This document shows, piece after piece, positions 42,362 to 61,251 of a stretch of DNA of 64,000 bases. Made by a program: the position numbers and the translations under genes. The DNA is taken from the IMG/VR virus record IMGVR_UViG_3300031949_000026. One strand, given 5' to 3'. The notes beneath the pieces are model-generated. The model was not told the DNA's origin. It made no database searches and saw nothing but the letters and a program-made list of their open reading frames with translations. This DNA comes from an uncultured virus (IMG/VR IMGVR_UViG_3300031949_000026) (lineage: Duplodnaviria > Heunggongvirae > Uroviricota > Caudoviricetes). The number at the start of each line of letters is the position of its first letter. The stretch's first letter is position 1.

Positions 42362-42676
42362 TTATTTAAAGAAGAAGTTCTTGACGAAGCTCGCGATGGA
42401 GAGCACCCAGAGCCAAGGGGAGATCGCTTCTCGGACCGCTTTGACCGGCGCGGCTTCTCCGGCCGCCTTCATGCTCGCGAAGGCTCCCTCGTCCTGCCCC
42501 ATCCCGGAGGCGGCACGGGCGATCCGCGGGCGGCGAGGTCCCTTCCAGCGGACGACCGCTCCCCAGACGATCCGGCAGGCGGCCTCTCGGGAATGCCCCG
42601 CGCGCAGGAGGGTCTCGATCTTGCGACGAACGACTTCCGCCTCTTCGCGGGACAGGGGGATGCCTGGAGCGGACAT
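42362..42676 (-). CDS. small membrane protein with SGMGQ motif
   Basis: ASGMGQD; C-terminal SPWLWVLSIASF. Confidence 0.6.
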   Translation of the reverse strand: MSAPGIPLSREEAEVVRRKIETLLRAGHSREAACRIVWGAVVRWKGPRRPRIARAASGMGQDEGAFASMKAAGEAAPVKAVREAISPWLWVLSIASFVKNFFFK

Positions 42677-43131
42677 TAGAACTTCTCCTTCACGTAGAAG
42701 GGCGCTCCCCACGGCTCGGACTGGAGGACCTGAGTCTGCGCCTCCATCGGAACCTGCCCCGGCGGGCAGGCCCAGAAGACGCGGACCGAGGGGAAGCCTT
42801 TCGTCTTTTCGACCTCCATGACGTTCCAACCCCGGTTCCGGTAGTCCTCAAGCTGCTGATAAAGCACGGTCTCGTTCCCGGGGATCTCTTGGATGCGGAT
42901 GCAGCGCTCCCCCGAGACCTGAAGCCGGGGCGGAATCGTCGGATCAAGATCACGCCGAAGGCTTCGGGTTTGGTGGACCTTCCCGAGCCCGGACTCCTTC
43001 GCGGAGAAGACCCGATCGGCCGCGCGCCGCACGAGCTTCCCGGCGATCGCCGGATGCCAGCCGACCCAGACGAGGGCGCGCTGCATGTCGATCAGAGCCC
43101 GGTGTTCGGACTTGGTGAGCGGTCTCGGCAC
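42676..43131 (-). CDS. hypothetical protein with SGLG motif
   Basis: ESGLGK. Confidence 0.6.
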   Translation of the reverse strand: MPRPLTKSEHRALIDMQRALVWVGWHPAIAGKLVRRAADRVFSAKESGLGKVHQTRSLRRDLDPTIPPRLQVSGERCIRIQEIPGNETVLYQQLEDYRNRGWNVMEVEKTKGFPSVRVFWACPPGQVPMEAQTQVLQSEPWGAPFYVKEKF

Positions 43132-43134
43132 GGG

Positions 43135-43584
43135 CTACTTTCCCCCCTCCTCCTTGACGGGCTCCTCTTCCTCGTCGCCTTCCTCTTCTTCTTCTTCTTC
43201 CTCGTCCTCTTCTTCCTCTTCCCCTTCCTCGTCCTCCCCGGAAACCTGTGCTTCCAGTTCGTCGAGGTCCTTCTCGTACTCCTCCTGGTCGTCGTAAAAA
43301 TCCACAGCAACGAAGCCCTGGTCGTTCTCGGTGACGATCGCGCCGTGGGATTCCTTGATGAGATCGCACTCCTCCGGGGTGAGTTCGTCCCCGTCTTCCT
43401 TCGCGACCCGCTCGATCTCAGGGAGCGCCTCGGGTCCCAGAGGGATGCCCTCGGCGGCGAAGCCGACCTCGCTCACGTCCCCGATCGTCCCTTCGCCCAT
43501 GCCCTCCATCGTGAGGTCGTAGACGTAGCTGTCGATGATCGTGTTGAACTTCCCAGGGCCGTAGCGCCTGATTCCCCTCGACAT
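43135..43584 (-). CDS. highly acidic protein with poly-Glu tail
   Basis: PGKF N-terminus; long E/D tract. Confidence 0.7.
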   Translation of the reverse strand: MSRGIRRYGPGKFNTIIDSYVYDLTMEGMGEGTIGDVSEVGFAAEGIPLGPEALPEIERVAKEDGDELTPEECDLIKESHGAIVTENDQGFVAVDFYDDQEEYEKDLDELEAQVSGEDEEGEEEEEDEEEEEEEEGDEEEEPVKEEGGK

Positions 43585-43585
43585 G

Positions 43586-43804
43586 CTACCTCCGCTTCTT
43601 GACCGTGTTGAGGACCGCCCGCGCACCGACCTGGATCGCGCGCGGCTTGGGCATCTTATCGTCCTTGTGCAGGTGGACCGCGTACTCCGCGGCGACCCGG
43701 ATCGCGCGGTGAAGGCCCTTGCCGATCGAGCGGGCGGCCTTTTTTCCCGCGTTGAGGACCTGCTGTTGGGCGCTCTTGATGCGTCCGGGAGGAATCTTCT
43801 TCAT
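43586..43804 (-). CDS. small basic protein
   Basis: K/R-rich; AAGGAG RBS; ATGA coupling. Confidence 0.55.
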   Translation of the reverse strand: MKKIPPGRIKSAQQQVLNAGKKAARSIGKGLHRAIRVAAEYAVHLHKDDKMPKPRAIQVGARAVLNTVKKRR

Positions 43805-45132
43805 GGTACGGCTCCTTCCTTGGCCTTGACCTTCCTCGTCAGGTCGAAGACGACATCGGCCCACGCCGAGGCGTTCGTGGAGCCCATGCAGCGATTCTTG
43901 CAGACCCACGCGATCGACGCCTTGCCGATCGCATCACGCTCCTCCCGGGTCTTCAAGATCATGCGTTCGAGCGCGCCCTCCCACTCGTCGTCCCGGACGA
44001 GTTCGGCGGGCAACCCGGCCTCGACGACCGCAGAGTATTCGCCCACGGGAGAAAGAAGCATCGGGTATCCCGCGGAGGCGTACTCGATCGCCTTGATCGC
44101 GCTCTTTGATGCGTTGAAGGGATTCTCTTCGAGAGGCGCAATCGCGAAGTCGGCGGCGATCCCGGCGAGCTTGTCGTGGTACGCCTCGAAGTCCACCGGG
44201 TCCTGGAGGTCGATCCAGTCGTAGCAGCCCGAAAGCGCCTCGGGCAGCCGCTCCCCGAAGCAGGTGAAGCGGACCTTCCCGGGACGCCTCTGGAGGACCC
44301 GCTGGAGCGCCGGGGCGACGATCGCGAGGTCCCGCTTGTGGGTCGGGCTTCCGGCCCAGAGGATTCTCGTGAAGGCCGGATTCGGAGGATGACGGCGCGG
44401 AGCGACGTTCGCCGTCATCATGTTCGGCAGAACCCGGACGGCTCCCCCGCCGACCTTGTAGTTCTTCGCGATGAAGTTCGCCAGGGGAGCCGTCGAGACC
44501 GTCACGAGATCCGCGAGTCCGATCATCTCCCTGATCTCGGTCTGCTTCTCCGGAGTCCCGTAGACCGAGATCGCTTGGTTCTCCAGGGGGATCGCGTCGA
44601 GCCGGTCGTCGATGTCGTAGACGATCTTGAGGCCCTGTTCCTTCGCCTTCCGGACGATCTCGATCAGGACTGGGGCGGTGATAAGCTGAATCCAGAGGAT
44701 GTCGTAGCGGACGGCCTTGTAGAGGTCCAGATTCATCGTGAAATGCGCGACGACTTTCCCGGTCTCGCGCATGAGGTCCGAGGGGATCATCGCCCGGTAG
44801 AATCCGCTCGCCGCCGCGCCCGCAGGGACGAAGAGGACTTTGGGGATCTCGGTTCGCCCGAAGATCATCTGCGTGAAGATGTCCTCTGCATCATGGCGAA
44901 TTTCCAGAACGTCTTGCACGGACCGGAGCATCCTGGGTCTGATAGAGAGGATCTTCGCGACTTCTTCGGCCTGCTTGAAGACGTCGAACGGGAAGACGGA
45001 GGATCTCTTCTCATAGGTGATCCGAATCCCATCGTCCGTCTCCTGAACCTTGAGATCGTCCGCGTGCTTCCCGCACCACAGACGAACCGCGGCTTCCGGA
45101 ACGCTCCGGATCATGTCAACGATCGTCGTCAT
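43801..45132 (-). CDS. GT-B glycosyltransferase
   Basis: ASGFYR, VYDIDD, ADLVTVST, WAGSPTH, IAPLEENPFNASKSAIKAIEY. Confidence 0.85.
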   Translation of the reverse strand: MTTIVDMIRSVPEAAVRLWCGKHADDLKVQETDDGIRITYEKRSSVFPFDVFKQAEEVAKILSIRPRMLRSVQDVLEIRHDAEDIFTQMIFGRTEIPKVLFVPAGAAASGFYRAMIPSDLMRETGKVVAHFTMNLDLYKAVRYDILWIQLITAPVLIEIVRKAKEQGLKIVYDIDDRLDAIPLENQAISVYGTPEKQTEIREMIGLADLVTVSTAPLANFIAKNYKVGGGAVRVLPNMMTANVAPRRHPPNPAFTRILWAGSPTHKRDLAIVAPALQRVLQRRPGKVRFTCFGERLPEALSGCYDWIDLQDPVDFEAYHDKLAGIAADFAIAPLEENPFNASKSAIKAIEYASAGYPMLLSPVGEYSAVVEAGLPAELVRDDEWEGALERMILKTREERDAIGKASIAWVCKNRCMGSTNASAWADVVFDLTRKVKAKEGAVP

Positions 45133-45184
45133 CTTCGTTCTCCCCTTTCGGCCTCAAAAGGCCCCTTCGAGAGCTATTCCTTCC

Positions 45185-45580
45185 TTACAACGGAAACCCG
45201 TGAATCATCCCGTCGTCGCCCACGAGAAGATCGAAGGACCCGTAGACGTGCGCGGCATCCGAGAGTCGGCCCCCGGCGGGCTCCGGCCAGTCGCCGTCCC
45301 AGAAGCCCGCGCCGTGGCCGTTCCGGGTGAGCCAGAAGTCGTGACCGGCGCGACCGGGGTCGCTCTTGATGTCGTCCCAATGCGCGCCCTGAAACGCCTT
45401 CGCGTCCGCGACCATCTTCTCCAGGGTTTCGGGCGCGATGTCGGAGACGTCGTAGTGGTCGTCGAGGGGACGGCCGCCGCTCTCGTCGGACTCGTCCATC
45501 GACGACCACAGGGCCGTCTCGATGTACTGTTGGGTGAACTCGTCGAGCTTGTGCTTGTGCTTGTGAATGTTAACGGGCAT
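45185..45580 (-). CDS. conserved phage protein
   Basis: YIETALWS...AGHDFWLTRNGHGAGFWD. Confidence 0.7.
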   Translation of the reverse strand: MPVNIHKHKHKLDEFTQQYIETALWSSMDESDESGGRPLDDHYDVSDIAPETLEKMVADAKAFQGAHWDDIKSDPGRAGHDFWLTRNGHGAGFWDGDWPEPAGGRLSDAAHVYGSFDLLVGDDGMIHGFPL

Positions 45581-46662
45581 TAGATCACCCCCGCCGCTTT
45601 CCCGATCCCGAGCGCCGCGAGGACGGCGATCGGAATCGCGAAGGCCCCGAACGGACTCTTGGGCTCCGGAATGTCCTTCACGCCTGCCTCCGCGTCGGCG
45701 TCGATCGACTTCTTCGCGGCGTCGATCTCCCCCTGCGACCGGCCTTCGGAACGCATCTGGAGTTCAATCTGCTTTTTCCGTTCCGCGGCTTCCAGAAGAA
45801 GCTCCCGGGCCGTCGCTGCCTTCGAGTTCTGGTCCGGGATAAGCCGGGAGACCGCCTGCGCCGCAACGACGGCCGCCGCAACGATCCCGACGATCCAAAT
45901 GATGATCGCGGCGAGGACGGGCATCGGATTTCCGAGTCCGGCTCCGGCGGGAGGGGCTTCCTGCGGAATCGGAACGACCTCCTGCGCCGCCTGGATGTAG
46001 AACCCGAGCCACAGAGGGTTGTCGGTCGCGTTGCTCGCGATCCCCGCGGCGGCGTACTTCTTCTCCGCGAGCGAAAGGATCGTCCGCTTCGTGTCCATGT
46101 AGTCCGGCGTGAGCGGGAAGACCGCGTTGTCGGTGTCCGTGATGAAGCGCCGGACCTGCGCGAGGGTCATGTCGATCGCGTTCGCGTCGTTCGAGGCTCC
46201 GGCCTTCGTGAGTTCGACCGAAATCGCCGTGAAAACCCGATCGAGCATACCGAGCGTCTGGACCTGCCGGGCGAGGATCTGAACGCCCTTCCGGGCCGTC
46301 GCCATCGCCATGTACGCCGGAAGGACCTTGGGGTTCGGGATCGAGCCCGCAAAGGGAATCGAGAGAGTCGGCGGCCCGAACTGCTTCACCGCGTCGTCAA
46401 GAAGGGCTTTCGCCTCCTTGTAGCCGGAGACGATCGAATTCCGGTCGCTGATCCCGCGGACCACCTCGTCGTTGAGCTTGTGAACGGCCGAGGTGAGTTG
46501 ATCGAGTTCCTTTCCCGCGATGAGACCGACGACGGCCTGCCGGAAGTCCCCGAGCCCACGGTAGCCTCTCATGCCGGAGGGGATGATGAGCGCCTCCTTC
46601 ACGCCGTGGACGAAGATACCCCGATAGATGGGTCTCCGCGCGACGAGGACGTGTTTGGGCAT
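45580..46662 (-). CDS. virion membrane protein candidate
   Basis: GMRGYRGLGD and GAGLGNP motifs; internal and C-terminal TM; AAGGAGG RBS. Confidence 0.65.
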   Translation of the reverse strand: MPKHVLVARRPIYRGIFVHGVKEALIIPSGMRGYRGLGDFRQAVVGLIAGKELDQLTSAVHKLNDEVVRGISDRNSIVSGYKEAKALLDDAVKQFGPPTLSIPFAGSIPNPKVLPAYMAMATARKGVQILARQVQTLGMLDRVFTAISVELTKAGASNDANAIDMTLAQVRRFITDTDNAVFPLTPDYMDTKRTILSLAEKKYAAAGIASNATDNPLWLGFYIQAAQEVVPIPQEAPPAGAGLGNPMPVLAAIIIWIVGIVAAAVVAAQAVSRLIPDQNSKAATARELLLEAAERKKQIELQMRSEGRSQGEIDAAKKSIDADAEAGVKDIPEPKSPFGAFAIPIAVLAALGIGKAAGVI

Positions 46663-46682
46663 GGCGCTCCTCCTTTCTTCCT

Positions 46683-47243
46683 CTACCGGCGGGGCCTTCT
46701 CTTCAGGAGAAGATACCCGATCGTTCCGGCCGCCGCAACGCCGAGGGCGGCTCCCCACCACGGAACGCCGAGGATGGAAGGGGTGGGTCCTCCCGCCGCT
46801 TCCTCCGCCCGCCGGACGGCCGCCTCCGCGTTGGAATACTGGAGTTGCGCCGCTTTCGCCTGGAGTTCGGCCGCCGCCGCTGCCGTCTGCTGCCGCTGGA
46901 TGTCGAGCTTCGCGATCGACTCGGCGGTTTTCGCTTCGACCTTGGCCGTGTAGGTCTTCGTGGCGACGTTCGCGGCCGTCGAGACGAGGGAGCCGATGAG
47001 TTCCGCCCATTGGCCCATGCCGGACGGAGCGATCTCCAGCTTCGCGGCCTCCTTGACGATCCTCCGGAGATTCGGGAAGAGATTCTGCCTCCCGGAAAGG
47101 CTCCGGTACGCGACGTTCGCGAGCCCCCGCGCGTCGAGCTTCTTCGTGATGAGCGACTGCTTGAGCGTCGGAGACCGCTCGATATCCGCGACGAAGGCGG
47201 CTGAGAACGCCTTCGCGTATTCCTGCTTGGCTTTGATGTCCAC
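46683..47243 (-). CDS. virion membrane protein candidate
   Basis: SGMGQW; Ala-rich coil; VPWW-TM-KRRPRR tail. Confidence 0.65.
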   Translation of the reverse strand: MDIKAKQEYAKAFSAAFVADIERSPTLKQSLITKKLDARGLANVAYRSLSGRQNLFPNLRRIVKEAAKLEIAPSGMGQWAELIGSLVSTAANVATKTYTAKVEAKTAESIAKLDIQRQQTAAAAAELQAKAAQLQYSNAEAAVRRAEEAAGGPTPSILGVPWWGAALGVAAAGTIGYLLLKRRPRR

Positions 47244-47253
47244 GATCTTCTCC

Positions 47254-48594
47254 TTACGCCGCCGCCGCGATCGCCGCCGCCGCGCCGCCCGCGATGAGCC
47301 ACCACGGAACGCCGCCTCCGGCTTCCTCCGCCTTCCCTTCTCCCTTGGCCGCCGCCGCCGCGCGCGCGACCATCGAACGAACCTCGCCGAGGGACATCGA
47401 ACGGACCTTCTCTTCGGATTCCTTCGGAACGGAGATGACGCCTGCCGCGGTCCGCAGCTTGAGGCCGAGCGACTTCCCGTTCAGGAAGACCTCGAAGCGG
47501 TCCCCCTCTTTCGTCTTCTGGCCGATCGTATCGAAAAGTTCGTTCGAGTCCTCGGTCTCGAAGACCTTCTCGCCCTCGACGACGAGTTCGTAGCGTCCGG
47601 AAGGAGCCTCTCCCTCGGGAGCGGGAGCGCCGCCGGAGGGGGGAGGGGCGCTCGGGGCTTCTCCCGGAGCGGACGGGTAGACCGGCGGCGAGGTGTACGC
47701 GGAGGCGAGCGCCTGCCGGTAGATGGACGCCGACTGGATCGCGCTCATCCAGTCCGGAGAGACCGGAGCGGAGGACGGAGCAATCCCCTGCTCCTCGGCC
47801 TGCTCGTTGACCGCCGCCTGCGAAGCGGGCATCTCTCCCTTATTGATCTTCTCGATCACCGCGAGCTTCTGATCGACCGTGAGCCCCGCCCATGCCGAGT
47901 CTGTGATCCCGGCCGCCGCGAAGACCGGCTTGTTCTCGTTGTAAAGCTTGTCGAGTTCGGCCTTGAGCTTCGCCTCTTCTTCCAGGACCTCGGCGTTGAG
48001 GCGGGCCGACTCCCGCTCGTTGACCTTCTTGATCTGGTCGGCCTGCCGCTTCTTCTGGTACATCGTGTTCGCGGCCGTAAGAACGGAGGCGGCGATGAGA
48101 GACGCGCCGCCCGTGAAGGGAGCCAGGACCGCTCCGACCACGGTGATGATGACGTTGCCGTACTTCTTCCAGACTTTTTTCGCCCCGGCCTGGACTTTCT
48201 CTTTTATCTTCGCGTGGACTTCCTTGACCTTCTCCTTCACCTTGAGGATGGCCTTCGGGACGATGGCCTTCTCGATCTTCTTGTGGACTTCCTTGACCTT
48301 CTTGACGATCTTCTTGAACTTCTTCTTGAGACTCCCGAGTCCCTGGTAGTAGACCTCCTCGTCATAGCCGCTGAGACCCACGCTCCGGGTGTACCGGATG
48401 GCATGGACCGCCTTCGTGACTTCGGTCGCGATCTGATTGGCGAGCGCGCGCTCGGGGTCCCGGGAGAGCAGGATGTTTCGGATCGTCGCGCGGGAACCGG
48501 GCTCCGAGAGTTCCTGGATGATCTCGGTGCGGGCGCTGGGAGAAAGACGGCGGAGGGCCTCCACCTCCCGCGTACTCAGTTTCGCCATCCGCAT
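47254..48594 (-). CDS. virion membrane protein candidate
   Basis: GLSG and QGLGSLKKK; Lys-rich helix; hydrophobic hairpin; C-terminal VPWW-TM. Confidence 0.7.
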   Translation of the reverse strand: MRMAKLSTREVEALRRLSPSARTEIIQELSEPGSRATIRNILLSRDPERALANQIATEVTKAVHAIRYTRSVGLSGYDEEVYYQGLGSLKKKFKKIVKKVKEVHKKIEKAIVPKAILKVKEKVKEVHAKIKEKVQAGAKKVWKKYGNVIITVVGAVLAPFTGGASLIAASVLTAANTMYQKKRQADQIKKVNERESARLNAEVLEEEAKLKAELDKLYNENKPVFAAAGITDSAWAGLTVDQKLAVIEKINKGEMPASQAAVNEQAEEQGIAPSSAPVSPDWMSAIQSASIYRQALASAYTSPPVYPSAPGEAPSAPPPSGGAPAPEGEAPSGRYELVVEGEKVFETEDSNELFDTIGQKTKEGDRFEVFLNGKSLGLKLRTAAGVISVPKESEEKVRSMSLGEVRSMVARAAAAAKGEGKAEEAGGGVPWWLIAGGAAAAIAAAA

Positions 48595-48606
48595 GATTCT
48601 TTCTCC

Positions 48607-48939: not shown

Positions 48940-49188
48940 CTATTCCTCCAGGGCCTTTCGGAGCTTCCCAACAAGCCGCTCCAGGGACTCGACAAGGGCC
49001 TTCCGGCGGGCCTTCTTGTCCGCGTCGAGCGAGGCGTCCTTCTCGACGTAGCTCTTGTACTCCGGCAGGACGATCTTCTGGGTGTCCTCGATCTCCGCCG
49101 CCGCCTGCCGCGCAGCCGGGGAGCAGGTGCAGGACACCACCGAGCAGGACAGGATCGCGACAACTGCCAGAATTGAGAGCTTCCTCAC
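48940..49188 (-). CDS. small lipoprotein-like protein
   Basis: signal peptide with Cys (ILSC, VVSC). Confidence 0.55.
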   Translation of the reverse strand: MRKLSILAVVAILSCSVVSCTCSPAARQAAAEIEDTQKIVLPEYKSYVEKDASLDADKKARRKALVESLERLVGKLRKALEE

Positions 49189-49589
49189 GGGCTTCCTCCT
49201 TCTTTGGGCGGCGACGGAGCCTTGCCTTCCTCTTCGGGTGCTGCGCCGCCCGTAAGCTTCCCCATGAGAGGGTTCATGATCTTGTCGTGGAACTGCTGCG
49301 CGCCGACCGCGGCGAAAAGAAGGATGACCTCATGAAGCCCCCACGCCTGGACGGTGTTCGCGCCGTAGACGCCCGGCATGGTGAGCTTCGCAAGCGTGCC
49401 GAGAACGAAGGTGAGCCCGATCGCCCAGAAAGGCTCGCGTCCCTCGACAAGCTTCTTCATGGCCCACTTGAATCCGGAGACGAGAAACGCCACGCCCGCG
49501 ACGATGCCGAGGTAGCTCGCGAGGAATTGGAGCACGAGTTCCTTGATCGGGTCGGCCTTGTCTTCCAGGACGAACGAGAGGATCGCCAT
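49185..49589 (-). CDS. three-TM holin-like membrane protein
   Basis: three hydrophobic helices and a charged tail. Confidence 0.55.
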   Translation of the reverse strand: MAILSFVLEDKADPIKELVLQFLASYLGIVAGVAFLVSGFKWAMKKLVEGREPFWAIGLTFVLGTLAKLTMPGVYGANTVQAWGLHEVILLFAAVGAQQFHDKIMNPLMGKLTGGAAPEEEGKAPSPPKEGGSP

Positions 49590-49597
49590 GGAACCTC

Positions 49598-49861
49598 CTA
49601 CTTGAACTCCGCTTTGTGCTTCTTCGTGAGCGCGTCGAAGAACTTCTGCATCTCGTCGGGCTTCGAGACGAGGGGGATCGACTGGTCCGGCACGTCGAGC
49701 AGCCCGACGTTCCGGTGCGGCTTCCCCTCGACCGCGTGCGAGGGCATCGTGTTCACGACCCGGCGCTTCCCCCCGACGACATAGGTCCTCTGGGGCGCGA
49801 GAGCCCCGGCCGCGATCACGACCTTGCAGTCCCGGCAGTAGGCGACTTTCATCTGGCTCAT
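49598..49861 (-). CDS. hypothetical protein
   Basis: YCRDC; coupled. Confidence 0.55.
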   Translation of the reverse strand: MSQMKVAYCRDCKVVIAAGALAPQRTYVVGGKRRVVNTMPSHAVEGKPHRNVGLLDVPDQSIPLVSKPDEMQKFFDALTKKHKAEFK

Positions 49862-50079
49862 TTCACCCTCGCCGTGGCCTCGCGCTTCTTGGTCTCCATC
49901 GCGTCCCGGGCGGTCTTGAGCGCCTGTTCCAGGTGCAAATTCACTTCCGGGAGCGCCTCGTCGGGCACCCGGTCAAGCGCCGCACGGATGTCCGCGATGA
50001 GGAAACGGGCCTTCATGTCGGCCTCTTCCATCTGCTTTTCGGACCCTTCCACCTTGGGTTTCTCGATCTTCGTCGTCAT
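49858..50079 (-). CDS. small hypothetical protein
   Basis: coupled. Confidence 0.55.
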   Translation of the reverse strand: MTTKIEKPKVEGSEKQMEEADMKARFLIADIRAALDRVPDEALPEVNLHLEQALKTARDAMETKKREATARVK

Positions 50080-50285
50080 GACTTCTGCCTCTTTTCCTCG
50101 ACCATCTTCTGAAACGCTTCGAGTTCCTCGATCCTCCTCTTGTGGAGCGCGAGGACCTCCGCCTTCGCCTTGTCCGCTTCCCTACGCTCCTCCGCGACCT
50201 TACTCCAAAGAATCTTGATCGTCGTCACGAGAGCCGCGACGATGCCCCCGGCGATCCCGAGGATCTTCCAGCATGTCGAATCCAC
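50076..50285 (-). CDS. single-TM small protein
   Basis: N-terminal TM then coiled coil. Confidence 0.6.
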   Translation of the reverse strand: MDSTCWKILGIAGGIVAALVTTIKILWSKVAEERREADKAKAEVLALHKRRIEELEAFQKMVEEKRQKS

Positions 50286-50603: not shown

Positions 50604-50606
50604 ATC

Positions 50607-53741: not shown

Positions 53742-54654
53742 AGCTGACCTTGCGGCCTCCGAAGATGGGCTTCACCGTGTTCGGATTCACCGTGTCGAGG
53801 TTGTCGATGTCGAGTTGCACCTTGAGCGACCGGCGGATCATCCAGGAGGTCGCCCACCGCGCCGGGAAGATGCCGCCCGAACCGCCGACGCCGCCGCCCG
53901 CGACGGTCGGCTGGTGCGCGCCGAAGAGAAGGGACGAATGGAGCTTGTCGCCCGTGAGCGCGCGGTCGTTCTGGCCGTCGCGGATGCGGCAGCGGAACGC
54001 GGCCGAGGACTGCGCCGTGAGCTTGAAACACTCGAAGTCCGCGTTGTCCGGAATCGTCATGAAGTTCGGATCGTCCGTCGCGCCCGCCGGGAGGACGATC
54101 TCTTCGTCGGTCGTGAGGAGGTAGGCGTAGGTCCGTTCGCGGCGCTCGATGTACTCCCAGACCTCCTTCTTGATCTGCCCCGGGGCCTGATTCGGGTAGA
54201 ACTTGATCCCGCCCAGGACGAGTTCGACCTTCCGCTCGTTCACGAGGTCCTGATTCCGGAACGTGATGTTGAGCGACTGGACCGGCGGGATGAAGATCGT
54301 CTCCGGGAGGACGTAGGGGCGGCCCGCGTCCCCGGAGCAGGCGAGAAGGGGGATGGGGCGCGGGGAGAACTGGATGCGCTTCCCCGGGTGCTCCAGAAGG
54401 AAGTCGATGTCGTAGGTCGTGACCGGCACATCCGCGTCGTCGTAGACGACGGTCTTGATGTAGAAGACCTCGATCGGACCGTCGTACTGCGCGGTGAGCG
54501 GAAACGGGCCGCGCCGCTCGCCCGGCGCGAGCGTGACGACCTGATTCGGCTTCGACACCGACAACTCGAACGGCTGGACCCAATCCTTCGCCGGATTGAG
54601 GTAGGTGCGACCCTGCTTGTCGCGAAGGAACGTCGGAACCTGCGCCCAACTCAT
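53731..54654 (-). CDS. tandem two-domain beta-rich capsid protein candidate (double jelly-roll-like)
   Basis: two similar halves ending RNQDLVNERKVELVLGGIKF and DNLDTVNPNTVKPIFGGRKV. Confidence 0.55.
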   Translation of the reverse strand: MSWAQVPTFLRDKQGRTYLNPAKDWVQPFELSVSKPNQVVTLAPGERRGPFPLTAQYDGPIEVFYIKTVVYDDADVPVTTYDIDFLLEHPGKRIQFSPRPIPLLACSGDAGRPYVLPETIFIPPVQSLNITFRNQDLVNERKVELVLGGIKFYPNQAPGQIKKEVWEYIERRERTYAYLLTTDEEIVLPAGATDDPNFMTIPDNADFECFKLTAQSSAAFRCRIRDGQNDRALTGDKLHSSLLFGAHQPTVAGGGVGGSGGIFPARWATSWMIRRSLKVQLDIDNLDTVNPNTVKPIFGGRKVSYVS

Positions 54655-54804
54655 CGTATCTCCCTTCCTGAACCGCCTTGGTAGAGGAAGGCGTGCGGCC
54701 GACTGTGGCCGCCTGCCGTCCGGGACCTACTCTTTCAGGTGCATCAGGGGGCGGCCCCAACAAGAGGGGCCGCCCGGAGTTGCGCCTGGACCGGCGAAGG
54801 ACGA

Positions 54805-55443
54805 CTAGACGCCCTTGTACCGGATGCCCCGGATGAACCACCGGAAGAGGAGGTTTCCCGTGATGCCCGCGAGCCCCGAGGGGAAGCTGATCTTCACCTG
54901 ATAGGGCTCGGTCGAGTTGATGTGGAGCGCCCTGCCGCCCACGTCGAAGCGGTAGAGGTTGTCGGAGATGCCCCACCCGATGTGCGGCGCGTCGGTCGCG
55001 CCCAGGCCCTCGGTGTCCACGCCGGAGGGCACGTCCTCGACCGGGATCGTGAGGAACTTCGTGTCCTGGCCGAAGATGATCTCCGAGAGCGCGGCGGCCA
55101 TGACGAGCGTGAAGTTCCCGACCGAGACGGTCTTGGACGTGAGGCTGCCCCAGAGCCGGGCGTTGAAGCCGTAGACGTCGAAGCTCAGGGGGGTGCCGAG
55201 CGATCCCGCCTGGGTCTGGTTCGAGTGGATGAACGTCTTCGACGTCGCGCCGTCGTTGAGGTTCTGGCCCACCGGCTTCGAGTACAGGGTGAACTCCCTG
55301 TTCGGGGTCGCCGCCAGGATGACTTCCGAGTCGTACAGCGGCTCCTTGTACGACCGGACGATCGCGGCGGGCACCCCCTTCGTGATCTTGTAGTAGGGGT
55401 GGACCACCTGGATCGGCTGCTGCGAGCCGTTCGGCGGAGGCAT
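54805..55443 (-). CDS. major capsid protein candidate (single jelly-roll-like)
   Basis: beta-rich; EPLYDS...SKT..HSN.TQAGSL..P.SFDV; strong AAAGGAG RBS; flanked by structured spacers. Confidence 0.55.
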   Translation of the reverse strand: MPPPNGSQQPIQVVHPYYKITKGVPAAIVRSYKEPLYDSEVILAATPNREFTLYSKPVGQNLNDGATSKTFIHSNQTQAGSLGTPLSFDVYGFNARLWGSLTSKTVSVGNFTLVMAAALSEIIFGQDTKFLTIPVEDVPSGVDTEGLGATDAPHIGWGISDNLYRFDVGGRALHINSTEPYQVKISFPSGLAGITGNLLFRWFIRGIRYKGV

Positions 55444-55628
55444 CGCATTCTCCTTTCACCACGCCATTTCCGGGTCGAGGTCAACTAGACCTCAAGGGGG
55501 CTCTCGCCCGCCTGTCATATTTCCCGTGGGACGGACTGGCGTACTTGTCCGACTCCCTTTCGGGGCTCGACGCACGAGCCGCGGAAGGGAGGCCCTGGAG
55601 GGTTTCCCCTCCAGGGCTCCCGGGATCG

Positions 55629-56735
55629 CTAGAACCGCTCCGGCATCGACGACCGGGCGAACTCGTCGAAGGCTTCTCCGATCCCCGAGGGCTGCATCTC
55701 GACCCGATCCGTCTGGGTTTCGGTGAGATACGCGCCCATCGTGGCGTCTTCGCCTTCGCGAGCCGTCAGGAACGTCTCCGCCCCCGCGGGCGTGAGGTAC
55801 GTCTCCATGATTCCCGCGGGCTGGATGTACTCGATCATCCCCTCGGCTCCGGCGGCCGGGAGATACTCCTGCACACCTCCGCCGCCGCGGAGTTCCTTGA
55901 GGACTTCCTTCTCGATCGCCTTGCGGAACTCCTCCGTCTCGGGCGCTTCGCCCAGAGTCGGGATGAACTCCTTCGCGCTATCGGGGAGCGCCTCGGAGAG
56001 CACCTGCCAGAGGGTCGCGAGCAAGCCGCCCGCCAGGAACCGGGTCGTCATGTTCCGGTTCTTGGTGGCGATGCCCATGAACGCCGTTCCGAGGATCGTC
56101 GAGCCGAGCATCGTCCCGACGCGGCCGATGCCCGATTCCCCGAGCGACGGGATCACCTTCTTGTAGAGCAGACGGCCGCCCACGGCGACCCCGCCGAAGC
56201 CCAGACCCGTGTGGAACAGGGCTTCGAGCGTGTCCATCGAGAAGGCGTCCTGGAGCGCCGCCTTGATCGCGCCGATCGGATCGGCCGACAGACGGACCGC
56301 CCTCGCCGGGTTCCGCCGGTAGTACCGGCGGCGCGGGTTGTGCCGGGCGTAGCGGCGGCGACGGCGCGGCGCGTTGCCCGGGTTGTGCCGGACCCGCCGC
56401 CGACGCCGGTAGCTCCGCGGGAAGCGGTAGCCCCTGATCTGTCCGCGACGGCGGCCCTTCCTGCGGCGCTTGGCGTACTTCGTGATCTTCCTCCAGCGGC
56501 GGCCGACCTTGACGAAGCCGCTCGGATTCCGGCTCCGGCGACGACGCCGGACCGTGCCCTTGGACCGCCGCGAAACAAACCGGCCGCTCGCGGAGCGGGC
56601 GGTCCGACGCCGCCTGACGCGACGGCGCGTGATGGTTTTCGCCATCTTGATCCTCCTTGCCCGTCGTGCGGGCGACTTGCGAACCGACCGGGGAACATCC
56701 CCGACCGGGTTTGCGAAAATCAATGCTCCGATCAT
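55629..56735 (-). CDS. Arg-rich core/DNA-condensing membrane protein candidate
   Basis: protamine-like N-half with five NP motifs; hydrophobic helices; acidic repeats; second start at 56645 with AAGGAGG. Confidence 0.7.
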   Translation of the reverse strand: MIGALIFANPVGDVPRSVRKSPARRARRIKMAKTITRRRVRRRRTARSASGRFVSRRSKGTVRRRRRSRNPSGFVKVGRRWRKITKYAKRRRKGRRRGQIRGYRFPRSYRRRRRVRHNPGNAPRRRRRYARHNPRRRYYRRNPARAVRLSADPIGAIKAALQDAFSMDTLEALFHTGLGFGGVAVGGRLLYKKVIPSLGESGIGRVGTMLGSTILGTAFMGIATKNRNMTTRFLAGGLLATLWQVLSEALPDSAKEFIPTLGEAPETEEFRKAIEKEVLKELRGGGGVQEYLPAAGAEGMIEYIQPAGIMETYLTPAGAETFLTAREGEDATMGAYLTETQTDRVEMQPSGIGEAFDEFARSSMPERF

Positions 56736-56738
56736 TTG

Positions 56739-59432
56739 CTACCCCCGCATCCAGTCCCCGGTCTTCTGACCGGGACCCATGACCTTGACGATCACCTTCC
56801 CGCCGCTCGCGGCGAGGACCGGAACCGGGCGGGGACGGCCGGAGCCGTCGCCCCACTCGTGCCGGTACATATGCCGCCCCTTCCGGGAGCCCTTCGGCGG
56901 CTTGTACATCGTCTCGGGACTGTCGCCGTAGTGGGCGAACGAGGTCAACATCTCGATCTTCTTCGCGGAGCCGATCGGCAGCGTCTTCCAGATGACGAAA
57001 TGGGGCTTCTTGTTCGCCTTCGTCTGGAGCCGCTCGGCCTCCTCGAACTGCCGCAGAAGTTCCGGGTTCCCGAGCTTCCGCACCCAGGCGCGGGCGCGCT
57101 CGATCGGAATCTTCTGGCCCTCGCGGAACGGGATGCGGACCGAGCCGGGATTCCCGACGACCCGCTTGGTCTGCTTCGTGACGGTCTCCGTGACCCGGAC
57201 CGGCTTCCCGGCGCGGCGCGGATTCGAGCGGGAATGGTTCTCCTGCCACGAACGCATGAGCGCGCCCCGCGCGGAGTCGGTGAGACCCGCCCACGACGGG
57301 GCCGCCGCGAGCGCCCAGGCGTAGTCGTCCGGAAACCCGGCGAACTCAAGCGCCGCGTGCCGCTGACGGCGCGTGAGCGAGGGCCACTTCCGGTCGATCG
57401 GCGGGTTTGCGAGGAGCACGGTCTGGAGGAGCGGGTTCGGCCGGACGGATTCCGGTCCATACTTGCGGATCACGTCCTCGGCCATCGCCGCGCGTCCCGT
57501 GTAGAAGCCTCGACGCTCTCCACGGAAACTCCGAGCACGATAAGCGTCGTTCGCGGCATCGGTCGCAAGCTGACCGCTTTCCCCGCGTGTAAGAGGGTTC
57601 CCGCGGGTCCATCCTCCTCCGCCCTTCTGGATATGAGAGATGGCCCTCTTCACGATCGCAGGCTTCGCGATGGTGAGCACTTCCCCGTCCCTCGCCTGCG
57701 CCCAGACGAAGGCGTTCCGAAGCAGCGAGGCGACCTTTCCTTCCAGGCCGCCCGGAACCTTGTAGGCGCGGACCGATCCATTCGGAATCGGCTGTCCGTA
57801 TTCGCCGCGCTTGGGCTTGTAGATACCGACCTCTCCGAGAATTTTCGTCTTCTTCGTGAGAAGGGTCGAAGAACCCATCGCACGGACCGACGACATGAGG
57901 AGGAAGACCGGCCGCCAGCCGGTCGTCACCGAGACCGTGCCGCTCGCGACGTGACCGAAGTCGTCCACCCAGATTCGCTTCCCGTTTTCGTAGTAGGGAA
58001 TGAAGCGTGGATCGAGTTCGGAGTCGTCGAACTTCGATCCGTGCTGCGCCTTCGCGCGCGCGAGGAGATCCTGATACGATCGACGCTCCCGGCCGGAGGC
58101 ATAAGGATTGTCGCAGGTCGAAGGGTTCGAGCAGCAATTCTCCCGCGCCGGAACCCGGTAGCCCGCCTTGCGCGCCATCGAGTAGGCGATCGCGATCGCC
58201 TGCTGCTGCGGGTAGCCCTCACGAACGAGCATCCCGATCTTCCCGGAGATGAAGCTCTGCGCGTCGGCGCTCGCCGGGTTCCCGCGCGCGCCGGTCTTGC
58301 TCGCGGCGTACCCGCGGACGAAGCACCACGCCTCCTTGAGGCCGCGCGCGGTGTAGATGCCGTCGCCCCCGTGGTAGTCGGTCGGCTTCGTGAAGAAGCG
58401 GTAGCGCGTCATGCCGTCGCCGGGAGCCCAGGTCTCGATGTGGAGCCCGAGCGACTTCGCAAACTCGTCGAGCCCCCTACGACCCTCGCCGGGAGCGTTG
58501 CGGAACACCGCGGCTTCCGCCCGCTTGATCGTCGCCCCCTGGCGCATATCGAGAGGTCCGAACTCGGCCACCCCATCGGCGTAGCCGTAGGCGCGTCCTT
58601 TATAGTGGGCGGCGAGCCGACCGCTACGCTGTTGACCGGCGGAGACCATCGAGCCCAGCGCCATCGTGAGCGCCCGATCCGCCTCACGGCGCGTGAGCGG
58701 ATTCGAGACCGGGCCGATCAGCCGGTCGTAGTTCCCGAGTTCCGCTTCGGCCTCGAAGCTGTCGCGGAACATTCTGGCTGCGACCTCCCGGGTCGCCCTG
58801 TTGAACATGGTGTCGATCCGGGGAATGTCGTGGGGACGCTCCGAGGAGACGACGTACTCTTTGATGTACTTCTTCGCTCCGCTCTCCATGAGGTACATGA
58901 AGAGCGTGACGGCCTTCTCCCGATCGTAAACGCCCTTGCGCCGCTTGAGCATGAGGTTCTTGACGATCGGAATGAACTGCTGACGATAGAGATCCGCGTC
59001 GTTCTCGATGAAGATTGCAAGCTCCCGAGCGGCGTCGGCGTCGGCCGGACCGGAGGGCGCGTTGTTGAAGGCGAAGACGTTCTTACGCGCCTTACCGTTC
59101 GGCCATGCGAAATCCGCGTTCGGCTCGGGGCTGCCTTCGTTGTTGAAGGCGAAAATGTTCCGGCGCGCGCCGTTCGGCTTCGCGATCAGGCCCATTTCCT
59201 CGGCATAGCCGATGACGGACCGCTTCAACTCCACACCACGCTTGAAGAATCCATCCCCGAACATCTGACGGGCGTCGTCGTCCCACCACTCCGCGATCGT
59301 CCTCTGACCTCTCTTTTTGTCGCTGATACGGATGTGCAGCCGATCGCGCTCCTCCCAGACATTGACATCGACCTCCGCCCGAGTGAGGAGACGGCGCGGG
59401 TTATTGAAGGCGAAGACGTTTTTCCGGCTCAT
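56739..59432 (-). CDS. large mosaic NP-punctuated protein (polyprotein candidate)
   Basis: ATGA overlap at 59432; three R[KR]N[VI]FAFNN repeats; 11 NP dipeptides between modules. Confidence 0.75.
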   Translation of the reverse strand: MSRKNVFAFNNPRRLLTRAEVDVNVWEERDRLHIRISDKKRGQRTIAEWWDDDARQMFGDGFFKRGVELKRSVIGYAEEMGLIAKPNGARRNIFAFNNEGSPEPNADFAWPNGKARKNVFAFNNAPSGPADADAARELAIFIENDADLYRQQFIPIVKNLMLKRRKGVYDREKAVTLFMYLMESGAKKYIKEYVVSSERPHDIPRIDTMFNRATREVAARMFRDSFEAEAELGNYDRLIGPVSNPLTRREADRALTMALGSMVSAGQQRSGRLAAHYKGRAYGYADGVAEFGPLDMRQGATIKRAEAAVFRNAPGEGRRGLDEFAKSLGLHIETWAPGDGMTRYRFFTKPTDYHGGDGIYTARGLKEAWCFVRGYAASKTGARGNPASADAQSFISGKIGMLVREGYPQQQAIAIAYSMARKAGYRVPARENCCSNPSTCDNPYASGRERRSYQDLLARAKAQHGSKFDDSELDPRFIPYYENGKRIWVDDFGHVASGTVSVTTGWRPVFLLMSSVRAMGSSTLLTKKTKILGEVGIYKPKRGEYGQPIPNGSVRAYKVPGGLEGKVASLLRNAFVWAQARDGEVLTIAKPAIVKRAISHIQKGGGGWTRGNPLTRGESGQLATDAANDAYRARSFRGERRGFYTGRAAMAEDVIRKYGPESVRPNPLLQTVLLANPPIDRKWPSLTRRQRHAALEFAGFPDDYAWALAAAPSWAGLTDSARGALMRSWQENHSRSNPRRAGKPVRVTETVTKQTKRVVGNPGSVRIPFREGQKIPIERARAWVRKLGNPELLRQFEEAERLQTKANKKPHFVIWKTLPIGSAKKIEMLTSFAHYGDSPETMYKPPKGSRKGRHMYRHEWGDGSGRPRPVPVLAASGGKVIVKVMGPGQKTGDWMRG

Positions 59433-59737
59433 GCCGCGACCCTCCGACGCATCGGGACATAGGGCCAACCCGCCGGGTTCCGGCGCGCGCCGCGGGACGC
59501 GAAGTGCGAGCCGATCGCGGCGGCGACCGCCGCGCCCGCGACGAGGGCCAGGACGACCGCCAGCCCGAACTTCGGGAGCACGTCTTCGACCATGACTTTC
59601 CTGATCGTCGGCTCCGCCGCTTCCGAGGCCGACGCCACGATCTCCTTCATGCGGGGCAGGAGCGCCGCGGTGATCTTGTCCGCGATCGGCATGATCGCGG
59701 CCGAGAGCGCATCCTGTCCCATGCCGTAGTGCTGCAC
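59429..59737 (-). CDS. small membrane protein with GMGQ and RRNP motifs
   Basis: GTG start; HYGMGQD...TM...ARRNP. Confidence 0.65.
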   Translation of the reverse strand: MQHYGMGQDALSAAIMPIADKITAALLPRMKEIVASASEAAEPTIRKVMVEDVLPKFGLAVVLALVAGAAVAAAIGSHFASRGARRNPAGWPYVPMRRRVAA

Positions 59738-59739
59738 GT

Positions 59740-61251
59740 CTATCTCCGGCCCCTGCTCCTGCTCCTGGACTTGAAGAGGACGTAGCCCGCGGCGAGGGCC
59801 GTCACACCCGAGCCGAGCCAGAACCAGGGACTCGACAGGATCGACTTCGACGAGACGGGCATCATCTGGACCTGTGCGACCGGAGCGCCCGCGACCTTGT
59901 TCGTGGCGTTGGCGACGGCCGCCGCGTACTTCGCCTCGACCTTCGCCGTCACGACGGCTCCGGCGACCTTCGCCGCCTCCGCGAGCGCCCCCGTCACCGT
60001 GTTGAGGACGGAGTTCCCGGCGTCGGTCGCCGCCTTCGCGGGCTCCGAATCGAGGCTCGTGACGAGCGTGGACTTCCACTCCTCGCCTTCCGCCCCCATC
60101 CCCGCGGGGACCCGCGTCGGGTTCTGCATGACGACCACCGCGCGGCGGCGGATTCCCATCGGCTGTTCCATCACGATCCTCACTTGTCTCTCGGGGGTCC
60201 CGGGCTGCTGCTCCTGGACGGTGGGACCGGCCTTCCAGAACCGGCGCACGTCGCGTCCGAGGTTCCCGTTCCAGGGAGAGCCCGGCGGATACGGCTGGTT
60301 TTCGATCTTGGTGTAGGGCTGGTCCCCTCTCCTGTAGTAGGGAGGGCCGTGATCGTCCGGCTGCCCCTTGAGGTGGACGATCCGGCGCGACGGGTTTTTC
60401 CCCTTCGACGCCTTGATGTACTTGAGACCCGGCTGGAGATCCGACTCGGGAATCTCCGTGTCGTGCGGCGGGAGAAGCTGCATGTTCGCCGCGTCGGAGA
60501 CGGGGATGAGTCCCTCGGCCCCGTCCGGCCCGAACGACTTGGGGATGCCGTAGCCGTACTCCTCGGACGGATAGAACTCTTCCTGTGGATTGGACGTGAC
60601 GACATCCTCGACCTCCTGGCCGAGGCCGTTCCGGTGGAAGCCGTTGAGCCCGCTCATGCCCTTCCCTCCGACCACATCTTCGATCGGTCCCTCGGGCCAA
60701 CGCGCGAAAAGTTCCGGAGCGACAGGCGGCCTCCAACCGGGCTTCGCGCTGGCCGTCGAAGGATCGAGCGCGTACCAGTCGCCGTTGACTCGGGCCGCGA
60801 CCCAGACGTGGGAAAACTCGTCGGGGCGCTGGAGATCGACCTTGGCCGTCTCCCACGCATACTGAAATCCGAGAATGCCCAGGAGCGCCGCCGTGTAGAC
60901 GCCCGCGATCGTATCGCAGTCCCCCACGAAAAGACCGGGGCCTTTGTACTTCTTCGCCACCCGAGCTTCGATGATCGGCTGCATCGCGGCGATCGGATGC
61001 TCGATCTTCTCGATCTGGAACGGATCACGCTGGAAGATGCCGTGTTTCTTGATCCACCAAAAGATCGCGTCGAGGACGGCCGTCGTGGACGCGCGCCGGT
61101 CGCTCGGAACCTGTAGCCTGATCCAGGTCGCGATCCGCTGCATCGTCTTGTCGAGCTTCCCGAGCGCGACGAGCCGGTGCATCTTATCCAGGGTCTTTTT
61201 CGTCCCCCGGACGCCGCGCTCAAGACCTTCGATCGTGGACTGTTCGCGCAC
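59740..61251 (-). CDS. transglutaminase-like (Cys-His-Asp) protease with C-terminal membrane anchor
   Basis: GDCD, FSHVW, WYALDPS triad; GMSGLNG, NGLGQ and AGMGA; SPWFW-TM-basic tail. Confidence 0.8.
   Translation of the reverse strand: MREQSTIEGLERGVRGTKKTLDKMHRLVALGKLDKTMQRIATWIRLQVPSDRRASTTAVLDAIFWWIKKHGIFQRDPFQIEKIEHPIAAMQPIIEARVAKKYKGPGLFVGDCDTIAGVYTAALLGILGFQYAWETAKVDLQRPDEFSHVWVAARVNGDWYALDPSTASAKPGWRPPVAPELFARWPEGPIEDVVGGKGMSGLNGFHRNGLGQEVEDVVTSNPQEEFYPSEEYGYGIPKSFGPDGAEGLIPVSDAANMQLLPPHDTEIPESDLQPGLKYIKASKGKNPSRRIVHLKGQPDDHGPPYYRRGDQPYTKIENQPYPPGSPWNGNLGRDVRRFWKAGPTVQEQQPGTPERQVRIVMEQPMGIRRRAVVVMQNPTRVPAGMGAEGEEWKSTLVTSLDSEPAKAATDAGNSVLNTVTGALAEAAKVAGAVVTAKVEAKYAAAVANATNKVAGAPVAQVQMMPVSSKSILSSPWFWLGSGVTALAAGYVLFKSRSRSRGRR

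Follow-up and report, generated by a model that had tools for sequence, protein, structure and literature searches.

The stretch of DNA analysed here (the window) comprises 64,000 of the 66,867 bases of the source contig of an uncultured virus, IMG/VR record IMGVR_UViG_3300031949_000026. It is gene-dense, has a G+C content of 63% and falls into a plus and a minus arm. The particle-gene operon of the minus arm opens with a gene for a 503-amino-acid (aa) protein with a transglutaminase-like domain, and a short glycine motif, G-[LM]-G, recurs in this protein and in many of those encoded behind it (Table 1). An initial annotation had read these features as a membrane-anchored, self-processing enzyme that processes, or cross-links, the structural proteins of a bacterial virus at the motif. 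For comparison we used five complete related genomes of 69-73 kb (G001-G005), four of them with direct terminal repeats, which were taken whole and in which genes were called by codon-position G+C; their versions of the enzyme are 44-55% identical to the one in the window.

The 503-aa protein consists of an N-terminal transglutaminase-like domain, a disordered linker of about 210 residues, C-terminal helices, a hydrophobic helix and a basic tail, and it has 95 homologues, many of them on contigs of 64-75 kb. In the AlphaFold2 model, residues 11-190 reach a predicted local distance difference test (pLDDT) of 71-96 per block, residues 196-406 stay below 50 and are disordered, and two long helices follow. 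The intact GDCD/HVW/LDPS triad described in the initial annotation is indeed there: Cys112 (in the context FVGDCD), His148 (SHVW) and Asp163 (ALDPS) are invariant in 27 of 27 aligned homologues. In the model Cys112 opens a helix (112-126), His148 opens a strand (148-155) and Asp163 directly follows another (158-162), so that the modelled geometry is the transglutaminase/papain arrangement. A Foldseek search of the PDB returned eight matches at E ≤ 0.001, all of transglutaminase fold (including TglA, 9crn, at 4.2e-4, Rad4 and TG2), followed by the putative cysteine protease 3isr, the CPR-C4 protease 7ob6, PNGase and a LapG complex (4u65_E, E 6.1e-3); template modelling scores were low, being normalised to a 503-residue model that is half disordered. 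Eight of the 27 family members match Pfam PF01841 (Transglut_core, best 1.2e-5). A family-profile search reached 1893 cluster representatives at E ≤ 1e-3, 480 at E ≤ 1e-10 and 46 at E ≤ 1e-30, and all 37 sampled remote relatives match Transglut_core, while a PHROG scan of 36 remote relatives gave no match at 1e-5. By transitive homology the protein thus appears to belong to the transglutaminase-like superfamily.

Two copies of the motif lie within the enzyme itself. The first stands directly behind the catalytic domain, with GMSGLNG (198-204) ahead of it, and the second in a region of pLDDT below 50, where the conserved middle region gives way to the variable, anchor-bearing linker. G211 and G384 are each at least 90% conserved, the site-1 column holds G[LM]G in five of the six genomes, and site 2 is likewise found in five of six. 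That two conserved motifs bracket the disordered linker of the protein fits self-processing. A complex prediction of the domain (1-200) with the enzyme's own segment 358-402 scored 0.02 against a mark of 0.32 and counts neither for nor against this. The hydrophobic helix and basic tail at the C-terminus are conserved across the alignment of 27 homologues and form a putative membrane anchor, although the helix went undetected in a strict Kyte-Doolittle scan (1.6 over 19 aa). Eighty-one of the remote relatives reach 250 aa or more; a transmembrane (TM)-like segment terminates 42 of these, and 63 contain G[LM]G somewhere. The proposal of a membrane-anchored, self-processing enzyme therefore gains from the helix, the tail and the bracketed linker. 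In one remote relative, P0315, the transglutaminase-like domain is interrupted by an intein splicing domain, for which the Pfam match (Intein_splicing, E 2.7e-8) does not reach the gathering score.

All motif strings quoted in the initial annotation are present, both in the enzyme (GMSGLNG, NGLGQ, AGMGA) and in the other proteins of the arm (YGMGQD, GGMGNP, GLSG, QGLGS, SGMGQW, RGLGD, AGLGNP, SGLGK, SGMGQD), and the weaker TLGE, TMGA and GIGE are located in the Arg-rich protein as stated. The sites follow short N-terminal leaders, mark prodomain boundaries or lie within disordered linkers. In the 102-aa membrane protein the motif ends a short leader, which in the closest relative (L042) reads VRYS-GMG-QD and in other orthologues YVKRP-GIG-D, YVRRP-GLG-D, YIRRP-GLG-D or IIRRR-GLG-D; leaders measure 4-13 residues, the site is found in five of five genomes, and a YVRRP-GLG leader heads proteins of two different families in the relatives. 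For the 260-aa protein, seven of eight aligned orthologues hold G[LM]G and the eighth GVLG. Among 46 database homologues of this family, 22 show G-[MLIV]-G behind a hypervariable Pro/Arg/Gly-rich leader of 5-45 residues, and as 10 of these have L, I or V in the motif, the leader must be translated there; four further records comprise one with GVLG, one with SLG, one that is truncated and one without the motif. Positional conservation was also found for the 446-aa protein (G[LM]G column in four of five genomes, GMG in L037), the 186-aa protein (site at residue ~75 in four of five genomes, GLGQW in L037, L040 and L041) and one of the small proteins (SGLG[KR] in all three genomes holding the family). 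The positional-analogue family of the ~366-aa membrane protein carries G[LM]G[DQ] in five of five genomes, while the 232-aa protein has no detectable orthologue in the five relatives.

Of the first 150 residues of the 368-aa Arg-rich protein, 54 are Arg and 9 Lys. The protein has four or five R-x-N-P repeats, followed by a hydrophobic middle and by YL-x-PAG-[AS]-E units that recur, and we regard it as a candidate for a DNA-condensing core protein to which a membrane segment is fused. Its C-terminal columns hold G[VMI]G in six of six genomes and GMGA[YF]LT in four of six. The ~900-aa protein shows no G[LM]G in the window copy; TKRATG[VM]G was found among the relatives, in four of the six genomes.

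Table 1. Positions of the features discussed in the text, numbered from the first base of the window
Feature	Position	Strand	Remarks
Plus arm	456-40125	+	Replication and host-interaction genes
Four glycosyltransferase-like genes	8310-10565, 11413-12045; 43801-45132, 62848-63555	+; -	One with TOD1/MUCI70 domain
LRAT/NlpC-like protein	27824-28324		Plus arm
Tad6 homologue	30179-30475	+	Thoeris inhibitor (anti-Thoeris, counter-defence); Pfam PF25188, E 3e-22
SprT-like protein	33316-33957		Plus arm
Minus arm (particle-gene arm)	40145 to ~63950	-	Almost no family matches
HELGH (HExxH) small protein	40145-40498	-	Far end of particle arm; weak M48/M78 match, E ~0.1
Small protein, SGMGQD	42362-42676	-	GMG 42497-42505
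Small protein, SGLGK	42676-43131	-	GLG 42982-42990
Small protein	43135-43584	-	GMG 43495-43503
~366-aa membrane protein (start uncertain)	45580-46680	-	RGLGD 46549-46557; AGLGNP 45931-45939, just before TM-like segment
186-aa protein, SGMGQW	46683-47243	-	GMG 47013-47021; hydrophobic C-terminus
446-aa protein, QGLGS and GLSG	47254-48594	-	GLG residues 85-87 (48334-48342), ahead of Lys-rich helical region
Possible lysis cassette	48940-50285	-	Within particle arm
232-aa protein	50607-51305	-	QGLGD 50766-50774
260-aa protein, GGMGNP	52959-53741	-	GMG 53673-53681; Pro/Arg/Gly-rich leader ends in GGMG, domain starts ~8 residues later
307-aa double jelly-roll major capsid protein	53731-54654	-	AlphaFold2 model and structural matches
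212-aa protein, probable capsid component	54805-55443	-	Best-conserved protein of the arm, 68-83% identity
368-aa Arg-rich protein	55629-56735	-	Protamine-like N-half, hydrophobic middle; C-terminal TMGA 55731-55742 and GIG 55677-55685
~900-aa protein	56739-59432	-	Three NVFAFNN repeats, many x-N-P motifs; matches only PHROGs of unknown function
102-aa small membrane protein	59429-59737	-	Leader MQHY-GMG-QD (GMG 59717-59725); TM-like segment 48-81
503-aa candidate maturation protease	59740-61251	-	Opens particle-gene operon
Putative membrane anchor of protease	59770-59829	-	Hydrophobic helix PWFWLGSGVTALAAGYVLFK then SRSRSRGRR; AlphaFold2 helix 475-494
Own site 2, G384-M-G386 (AGMGA)	60094-60102	-	Between conserved middle region and variable linker with anchor
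Own site 1, G209-L-G211	60619-60627	-	Directly behind catalytic domain
Catalytic domain, residues 10-195	60667-61224	-	Alignment and AlphaFold2
Cys112; His148; Asp163	60916-60918; 60808-60810; 60763-60765	-	Catalytic triad

Enrichment in the window was assessed by 2000 within-protein shuffles of 30 minus-arm proteins (6604 aa) and 51 plus-arm proteins (11,070 aa). G[LM]G occurs 13 times in the minus arm versus 4.8 expected (about 2.7-fold, p 0.0015) and five times in the plus arm versus 7.5 expected (p 0.875); the wider pattern G[LM][GS] is likewise in excess in the minus arm (17 versus 7.8, p 0.004). The minus-arm controls G[IV]G (6 versus 6.7) and GAG (3 versus 5.5) are not enriched, and Gly-richness therefore does not explain the excess. 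With shuffling in blocks of 15 or 30 residues, a curated set of 32 proteins still gave 14 copies of G[LM]G versus 5.5-5.6 (p ≤ 0.0025). The same was seen in the five relatives, where seen and expected counts amount to 19/6.8 in the particle arm and 4/7.5 in the rest of the genome for G001, 15/5.4 and 8/7.9 for G002, 10/4.4 and 7/6.1 for G003, 15/5.4 and 9/7.9 for G004, and 15/6.1 and 5/6.6 for G005. The excess holds under local block shuffles in all six genomes (p ≤ 0.05), and the control G[IVAF]G is flat in the arms of four of the five relatives, with a nominal excess in G002 (21 versus 14.0, p 0.033). Both the preference of the motif for the minus arm and its persistence in related contigs, which the initial annotation had expected, were thus borne out.

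A test by families asked for positional conservation. Grouping of all 173 arm proteins from the six genomes gave 68 families, of which the 25 present in at least three genomes were used and 43 left out; a site was counted as conserved if the tripeptide, in a reduced alphabet, occupied an aligned position in at least 60% of the genomes. G-[LM]-G ranks first of 856 reduced-alphabet tripeptides, with conserved sites in 8 of the 25 families (runner-up 6), and with the full alphabet GLG is again first, with seven families versus four. In further loci L and M are swapped at the same columns. It is this replication and positional conservation in the relatives that gives the motif its weight. Regarding the neighbouring residues, Asp is the commonest at the position behind the motif (in 21 of 84 contexts), and no consistent Gln or Lys was seen. 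Since transglutaminases link Gln with Lys, we rejected cross-linking at the motif as unlikely. The claim that the motif marks a change in composition found weak support: the Jensen-Shannon divergence of the flanks (20 aa each side) was 0.104 at 13 window sites versus a background of 0.077 (p 0.058), and 0.097 versus 0.075 at 75 sites of the six genomes (p 0.002), which are not independent.

The association of enzyme and motif extends beyond these genomes. A profile search listed 109 remote relatives. The domain is present in 102 of them, and 78, which are separate clusters at 50% identity, were retained because the domain is complete and at least 45 residues follow it (24 were dropped). Of the 78, 42 versus 6.0 expected have a G[LM]G where the catalytic domain ends, and in 34 of the 42 a hydrophobic residue is found two positions before it (M 15, L 6, I 5, W 4, V 4), giving the pattern (M/L/I/V/W)-x-G-[LM]-G. 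One distant transglutaminase-like relative led to a 39-kb uncultured viral fragment estimated to be 37% complete (G006), and BLASTP of its 54 called proteins against those of the window gave no match. The G006 locus around the transglutaminase-like gene (23749-39439, to the contig end) contains 13 copies of G[LM]G versus 3.8 expected (p 0.001), and the rest of the contig 6 versus 6.2; several of the copies lie within leaders at the N-terminus (MLFHR-GLG, for example). Taken together, the aligned remote relatives were too diverse to be used in a locus scan, and of two scans with single proteins one found a locus and one nothing. In G006 (L043-L045) the transglutaminase-like gene has an N-terminal hydrophobic segment; the fragment also encodes a ribonucleotide reductase, a GH25/peptidoglycan (PG)-binding lysin and two pectate-lyase-like proteins, and no capsid gene was recognised in it.

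The nature of the virus is indicated by the 307-aa protein of the particle arm, which next to the 212-aa protein is the best conserved of the arm and is 59-72% identical to its counterparts in the relatives. Its AlphaFold2 model (34 homologues, pLDDT 83.7, predicted template modelling score 0.81) consists of two beta-sandwiches. Structural comparison with VIA, with which Foldseek agreed, gave Z scores of 11.7-12.0 for GH172/DUF2961 enzymes (8ic8, 12.0), 11.7 for the major capsid protein (MCP) of Sulfolobus turreted icosahedral virus (STIV; 2bbd, root-mean-square deviation 4.2, 237 residues aligned), 10.5 for PRD1 P3 (7ook), 9.2 for phiCjT23 and 9.0 for PM2 P2 (2vvf), and the alignments to the STIV, PRD1 and PM2 capsid proteins each span about 220-245 residues. 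On this model the protein is an MCP with two jelly rolls and the virus a member of the double jelly-roll lineage. The neighbouring 212-aa protein is a probable capsid component. For both proteins phmmer against PDB sequences gave no significant match, and the protein Atlas offered weak leads only, namely to the capsid families of PM2 P2 and PRD1 P3, none of the named clusters scoring above 0.84. The window is best explained as the greater part of a tailless bacterial virus's ~67-kb genome, a large tailless phage being indicated by the double jelly-roll capsid protein. TM-like segments in 9 of 32 arm proteins, and weaker hydrophobic C-termini in several more, suggest that an internal membrane is probably present.

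A prokaryotic host follows from Shine-Dalgarno-like 4-mers, which precede 48 of 65 genes versus 26% of random 17-mers, and the Tad6 homologue points to a bacterium, in keeping with the bacterial virus that had been proposed at the outset. A eukaryotic host was rejected on the Shine-Dalgarno signal, the PHROG matches, Tad6 and the HNH gene. The plus arm encodes a DNA helicase, a D5-type primase-helicase and a second helicase, together with ThyX, an Rv2179c-like exonuclease, an HNH endonuclease and several glycosyltransferases. What Pfam and PHROG scans of 35 open reading frames (ORFs) of the minus arm recognised was limited to glycosyltransferases, one methyltransferase and a small number of PHROGs of unknown function; the protease and capsid genes were left unmatched. 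A tblastn search of 50,697 GenBank phage records with the protease and the capsid protein gave no match, a metagenome contig scan found five loci only, all at ≤40% identity, and a scan of binned genomes hit one contig, in a Thermoanaerobaculia metagenome-assembled genome, which is not reliable host evidence. We found no paper on such a clade, and none that pairs 'double jelly-roll' with 'transglutaminase'. The clade of large (~65-75 kb) tailless viruses, absent from the papers found and from the GenBank phage records, is thus apparently undescribed. No packaging ATPase (FtsK/HerA-type) was found in the window, where the sole Walker A motif is that of the D5-like primase-helicase; the gene may lie in the ~2.9 kb outside. 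G001 has a DUF87/HerA-like protein of 642 aa, which is unmatched in the window and has weak matches in two of the four other relatives.

Several side observations concern the same genome. A second motif, x-N-P, is also over-represented: [RHSG]NP occurs 14 times in the window arm versus 2.8 expected, and in the six genomes RNP reaches 27 versus 5.7, SNP 28 versus 5.6 and NPL 31 versus 6.5. It was noted in the ~900-aa, Arg-rich and 102-aa proteins and in G001-G005, often within basic C-terminal tails (RRNP-x-x-R) behind hydrophobic segments. The first ~140 residues of the ~900-aa protein contain three copies of R-[KR]-N-[VI]-F-A-F-N-N, and the Arg-rich protein starts with MIGALIFANP, which resembles this repeat and may be a shared anchor or signal. 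In the possible lysis cassette, a 69-aa TM protein resembles holins (weak match to P21 holin, E 0.0014); it is accompanied by a TM protein of 134 aa and by an 82-aa protein whose signal peptide is lipoprotein-like. The glycosyltransferase-like genes, together with methyltransferases, amount to a sugar-modifying capacity unusual for a phage, with glycosylation of particle or DNA as a possible role.

The fold and triad of the enzyme, the enrichment and positional conservation of the motif and the co-occurrence of the two are shown by the analysis; from them we infer cleavage, the scissile bond, its timing, the membrane topology, the link between enzyme and substrates and the choice of real sites. 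Belief and doubt are evenly balanced, in our judgement, as to whether the 503-aa protein is a self-processing maturation protease acting at G-[LM]-G. Such a protein would be a tethered cysteine protease, its catalytic domain (residues ~10-195) held by the ~210-residue disordered linker to the C-terminal hydrophobic helix and basic tail. During particle assembly it would recognise G-[LM]-G, with L, M, I and V tolerated in the relatives and Asp, Ala, Gln, Gly or Asn usually next, and it would free itself by cutting the two conserved sites that bracket its linker. Short N-terminal leaders would be removed from the 102-aa membrane protein and the 260-aa capsid-module protein, N-terminal prodomains of 40-110 residues from several proteins with hydrophobic C-termini, and the C-terminal part of the Arg-rich DNA-condensing protein would be trimmed, so that at least 10 particle-module proteins would be processed in all.

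A number of results weigh against this interpretation. In a scan of all tripeptides in the window's minus arm GLG ranks 168 and GMG 595 of 3470, and the excess in a single genome would not survive multiple testing by itself. When the six genomes are pooled GMG is eighth (31 versus 8.2) and GLG 22nd (54 versus 25); these genomes are related, however, and the top tripeptide of a control set from outside the arm reaches a similar p of ~1e-8. The trans sites show no clear preference before the motif and the motif no overall N-terminal bias, with 13 of 88 sites in the first 30 residues versus 12.7% expected. Some copies in hydrophobic or folded parts are probably structural and not sites, such as GLGFGG at residue 177 of the Arg-rich protein, which lies within a hydrophobic stretch and is ALG in the closest relative. 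Twenty of the 46 records of the 260-aa family begin at the motif Met, a gene-calling ambiguity that leaves some leaders possibly untranslated. On the side of the enzyme, the window's 503-aa protein matches no Pfam family even at E 0.1, and its fold alone does not prove a protease, as cross-linking, deamidation, N-glycanase and acetyltransferase members were also matched. Cleavage of the motif-bearing proteins is itself deduced from sequence, the link between enzyme and motif in a second lineage comes from one contig, and the window holds other protease-like genes, namely the HExxH, SprT-like and LRAT/NlpC-like ones.

That the motif is a product of chance or composition, inflated by related genomes, is barely credible and has already been largely refuted. 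G[LM]G is indeed not outstanding among all tripeptides in the window alone and the five relatives are not independent, but it comes first of 856 when families with conserved sites are counted, its excess persists under block shuffles and is replicated in a contig without detectable homology to the window, and at the domain end it stands at 42 versus 6.0 expected over 78 separate clusters. Gly motifs might instead be unrelated structural features of Gly-rich membrane proteins, with the transglutaminase-like protein acting in entry or lysis, as a peptidase or isopeptidase of the cell wall, or linking proteins to one another. A phage pseudomurein endoisopeptidase is among the weak viral fold matches (rank 28, E 0.38), and no glycosidase-type lysin was recognised in the window. 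Against this stand the separate lysin beside the transglutaminase-like gene in G006, the LRAT/NlpC-like candidate elsewhere in the window, the controls G[IV]G, GAG, G[IVAF]G and G[IVAFST]G, which are not enriched overall (G002 being the nominal exception for G[IVAF]G), and the lack of a consistent Gln or Lys at the motif, and we consider this alternative very doubtful. Only marginally more probable, and still a poor prospect, is cleavage of the motifs by a different protease, be it a host enzyme, the HExxH protein or another viral peptidase, with the transglutaminase-like protein merely one more substrate. The HExxH protein lies in the same arm and is kept in all five relatives at 43-55% identity, but its match to peptidase families is weak. 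Staphylococcus phage 80alpha reportedly has its capsid-protein leaders trimmed by the host protease Prp. In the present case, however, the excess of the motif accompanies the transglutaminase-like gene in an unrelated contig, and in the wider family the motif keeps its place where the catalytic domain ends.

The alternative that we take most seriously, though we judge it unlikely, is that the motif is not cut at all. It could be a Gly-hinge tag that recruits particle or membrane proteins to the assembling capsid or a membrane patch, or it could be bound by the transglutaminase-like protein as an assembly chaperone or an acyl- or amide-modifying enzyme. Conservation and enrichment show selection, not cleavage, and a YVRRP-GLG leader common to unrelated proteins would suit targeting. 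On the other hand, a catalytic triad that is intact and invariant over very wide divergence argues for catalysis, the sites lie where hypervariable leaders end or within disordered linkers, as is typical of removable pieces, and the enzyme's own copy behind the domain recurs in more than half of the remote relatives (42 of 78).

If the virus does encode a self-processing protease with this specificity, this would establish a new family of viral proteases whose site can be predicted and which could be employed as sequence-specific tools, and it would provide an annotation marker for a large environmental phage clade (~65-75 kb, direct terminal repeats) whose particle genes match almost nothing. 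Tailed-phage prohead proteases (T4 gp21, phiKZ gp175, HK97 gp4) also trim many head proteins at a short consensus and remove targeting leaders; they are serine proteases with the herpesvirus-assemblin fold and occur in HK97-fold viruses, and none of the 35 minus-arm ORFs matched their Pfam and PHROG families. With PRD1, PM2 and STIV the virus shares a double jelly-roll MCP (Z 9.0-11.7) and many small hydrophobic proteins in the particle module, and it differs from them in its genome of ~67-73 kb with direct terminal repeats in the relatives. The genomes of PRD1, PM2 and STIV are several-fold smaller than ~65-75 kb. Tectiviruses are described in a review (PMC4405056) as sharing capsid proteins, ATPase and polymerase with eukaryotic members, and not a maturation protease. 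The closest enzymes by fold are LapG and its relative DvhG, which share the transglutaminase-like fold family and the Cys-His-Asp triad with the enzyme of the window. LapG, as presented in PMC10990149, is a cysteine protease of the bacterial transglutaminase-like type (BTLCP), a site-specific endopeptidase that cuts between two small residues (Ala-Ala) and removes an N-terminal module, and DvhG has a predicted TM helix; unlike the enzyme proposed here, with its many substrates and its G-[LM]-G site, LapG is a periplasmic regulator of one adhesin. The likeness is a fold-level match only, as Pfam scans gave no sequence-level match of LapG to the window enzyme and the LapG-type Pfam family is not listed for the 27 family members at E ≤ 0.1.

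In adenoviruses, virophages, polintons and giant viruses, maturation characteristically depends on a protease carried in the particle and on its short cleavage code. Adenain, the adenovirus protease (AVP), is an Ulp1-like enzyme of clan CE with the catalytic order His...Asp/Glu...Cys. In the window enzyme the order is Cys...His...Asp, the fold is transglutaminase-like and the host is bacterial, and searches of Pfam, PHROG and the PDB (Foldseek) gave no sequence or fold match to adenain. Because catalytic order and fold differ, the enzyme is not a member of the adenain family and is a functional analogue at most. In terms of function, AVP is the nearest known counterpart. Like the adenain-type proteases of adenovirus, African swine fever virus and poxvirus, it is accompanied by a short Gly consensus that recurs in several particle proteins. 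AVP, as PMC3386624 describes it, reads (M/I/L)XGX-G and (M/I/L)XGG-X on capsid and core precursors; its virus is of the double jelly-roll type, and this virion-associated cysteine protease processes numerous precursors, both capsid and Arg-rich core ones, at a short Gly consensus. The enzyme's own site, here and in the remote relatives, is hydrophobic-x-G-[LM]-G and has the shape of (M/I/L)XGX-G (PMC3386624), while most trans sites lack the hydrophobic residue two positions before the motif. In its broadest form our proposal, for which we see somewhat less than an even chance, is that a very large undescribed assemblage of big tailless bacterial viruses, the ~65-75-kb double jelly-roll viruses included, matures by its own family of transglutaminase-fold, self-releasing proteases, with a hydrophobic-x-G-[LM]-G code convergent with that of adenovirus and with the Arg-rich protein as a cleaved core protein like adenovirus protein VII; 480 cluster representatives are matched by the catalytic-domain profile at E ≤ 1e-10. 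If so, the prokaryotic branch of this capsid lineage, hitherto regarded as without one, would have a maturation protease as well, of a different fold and with a strikingly similar Gly code.

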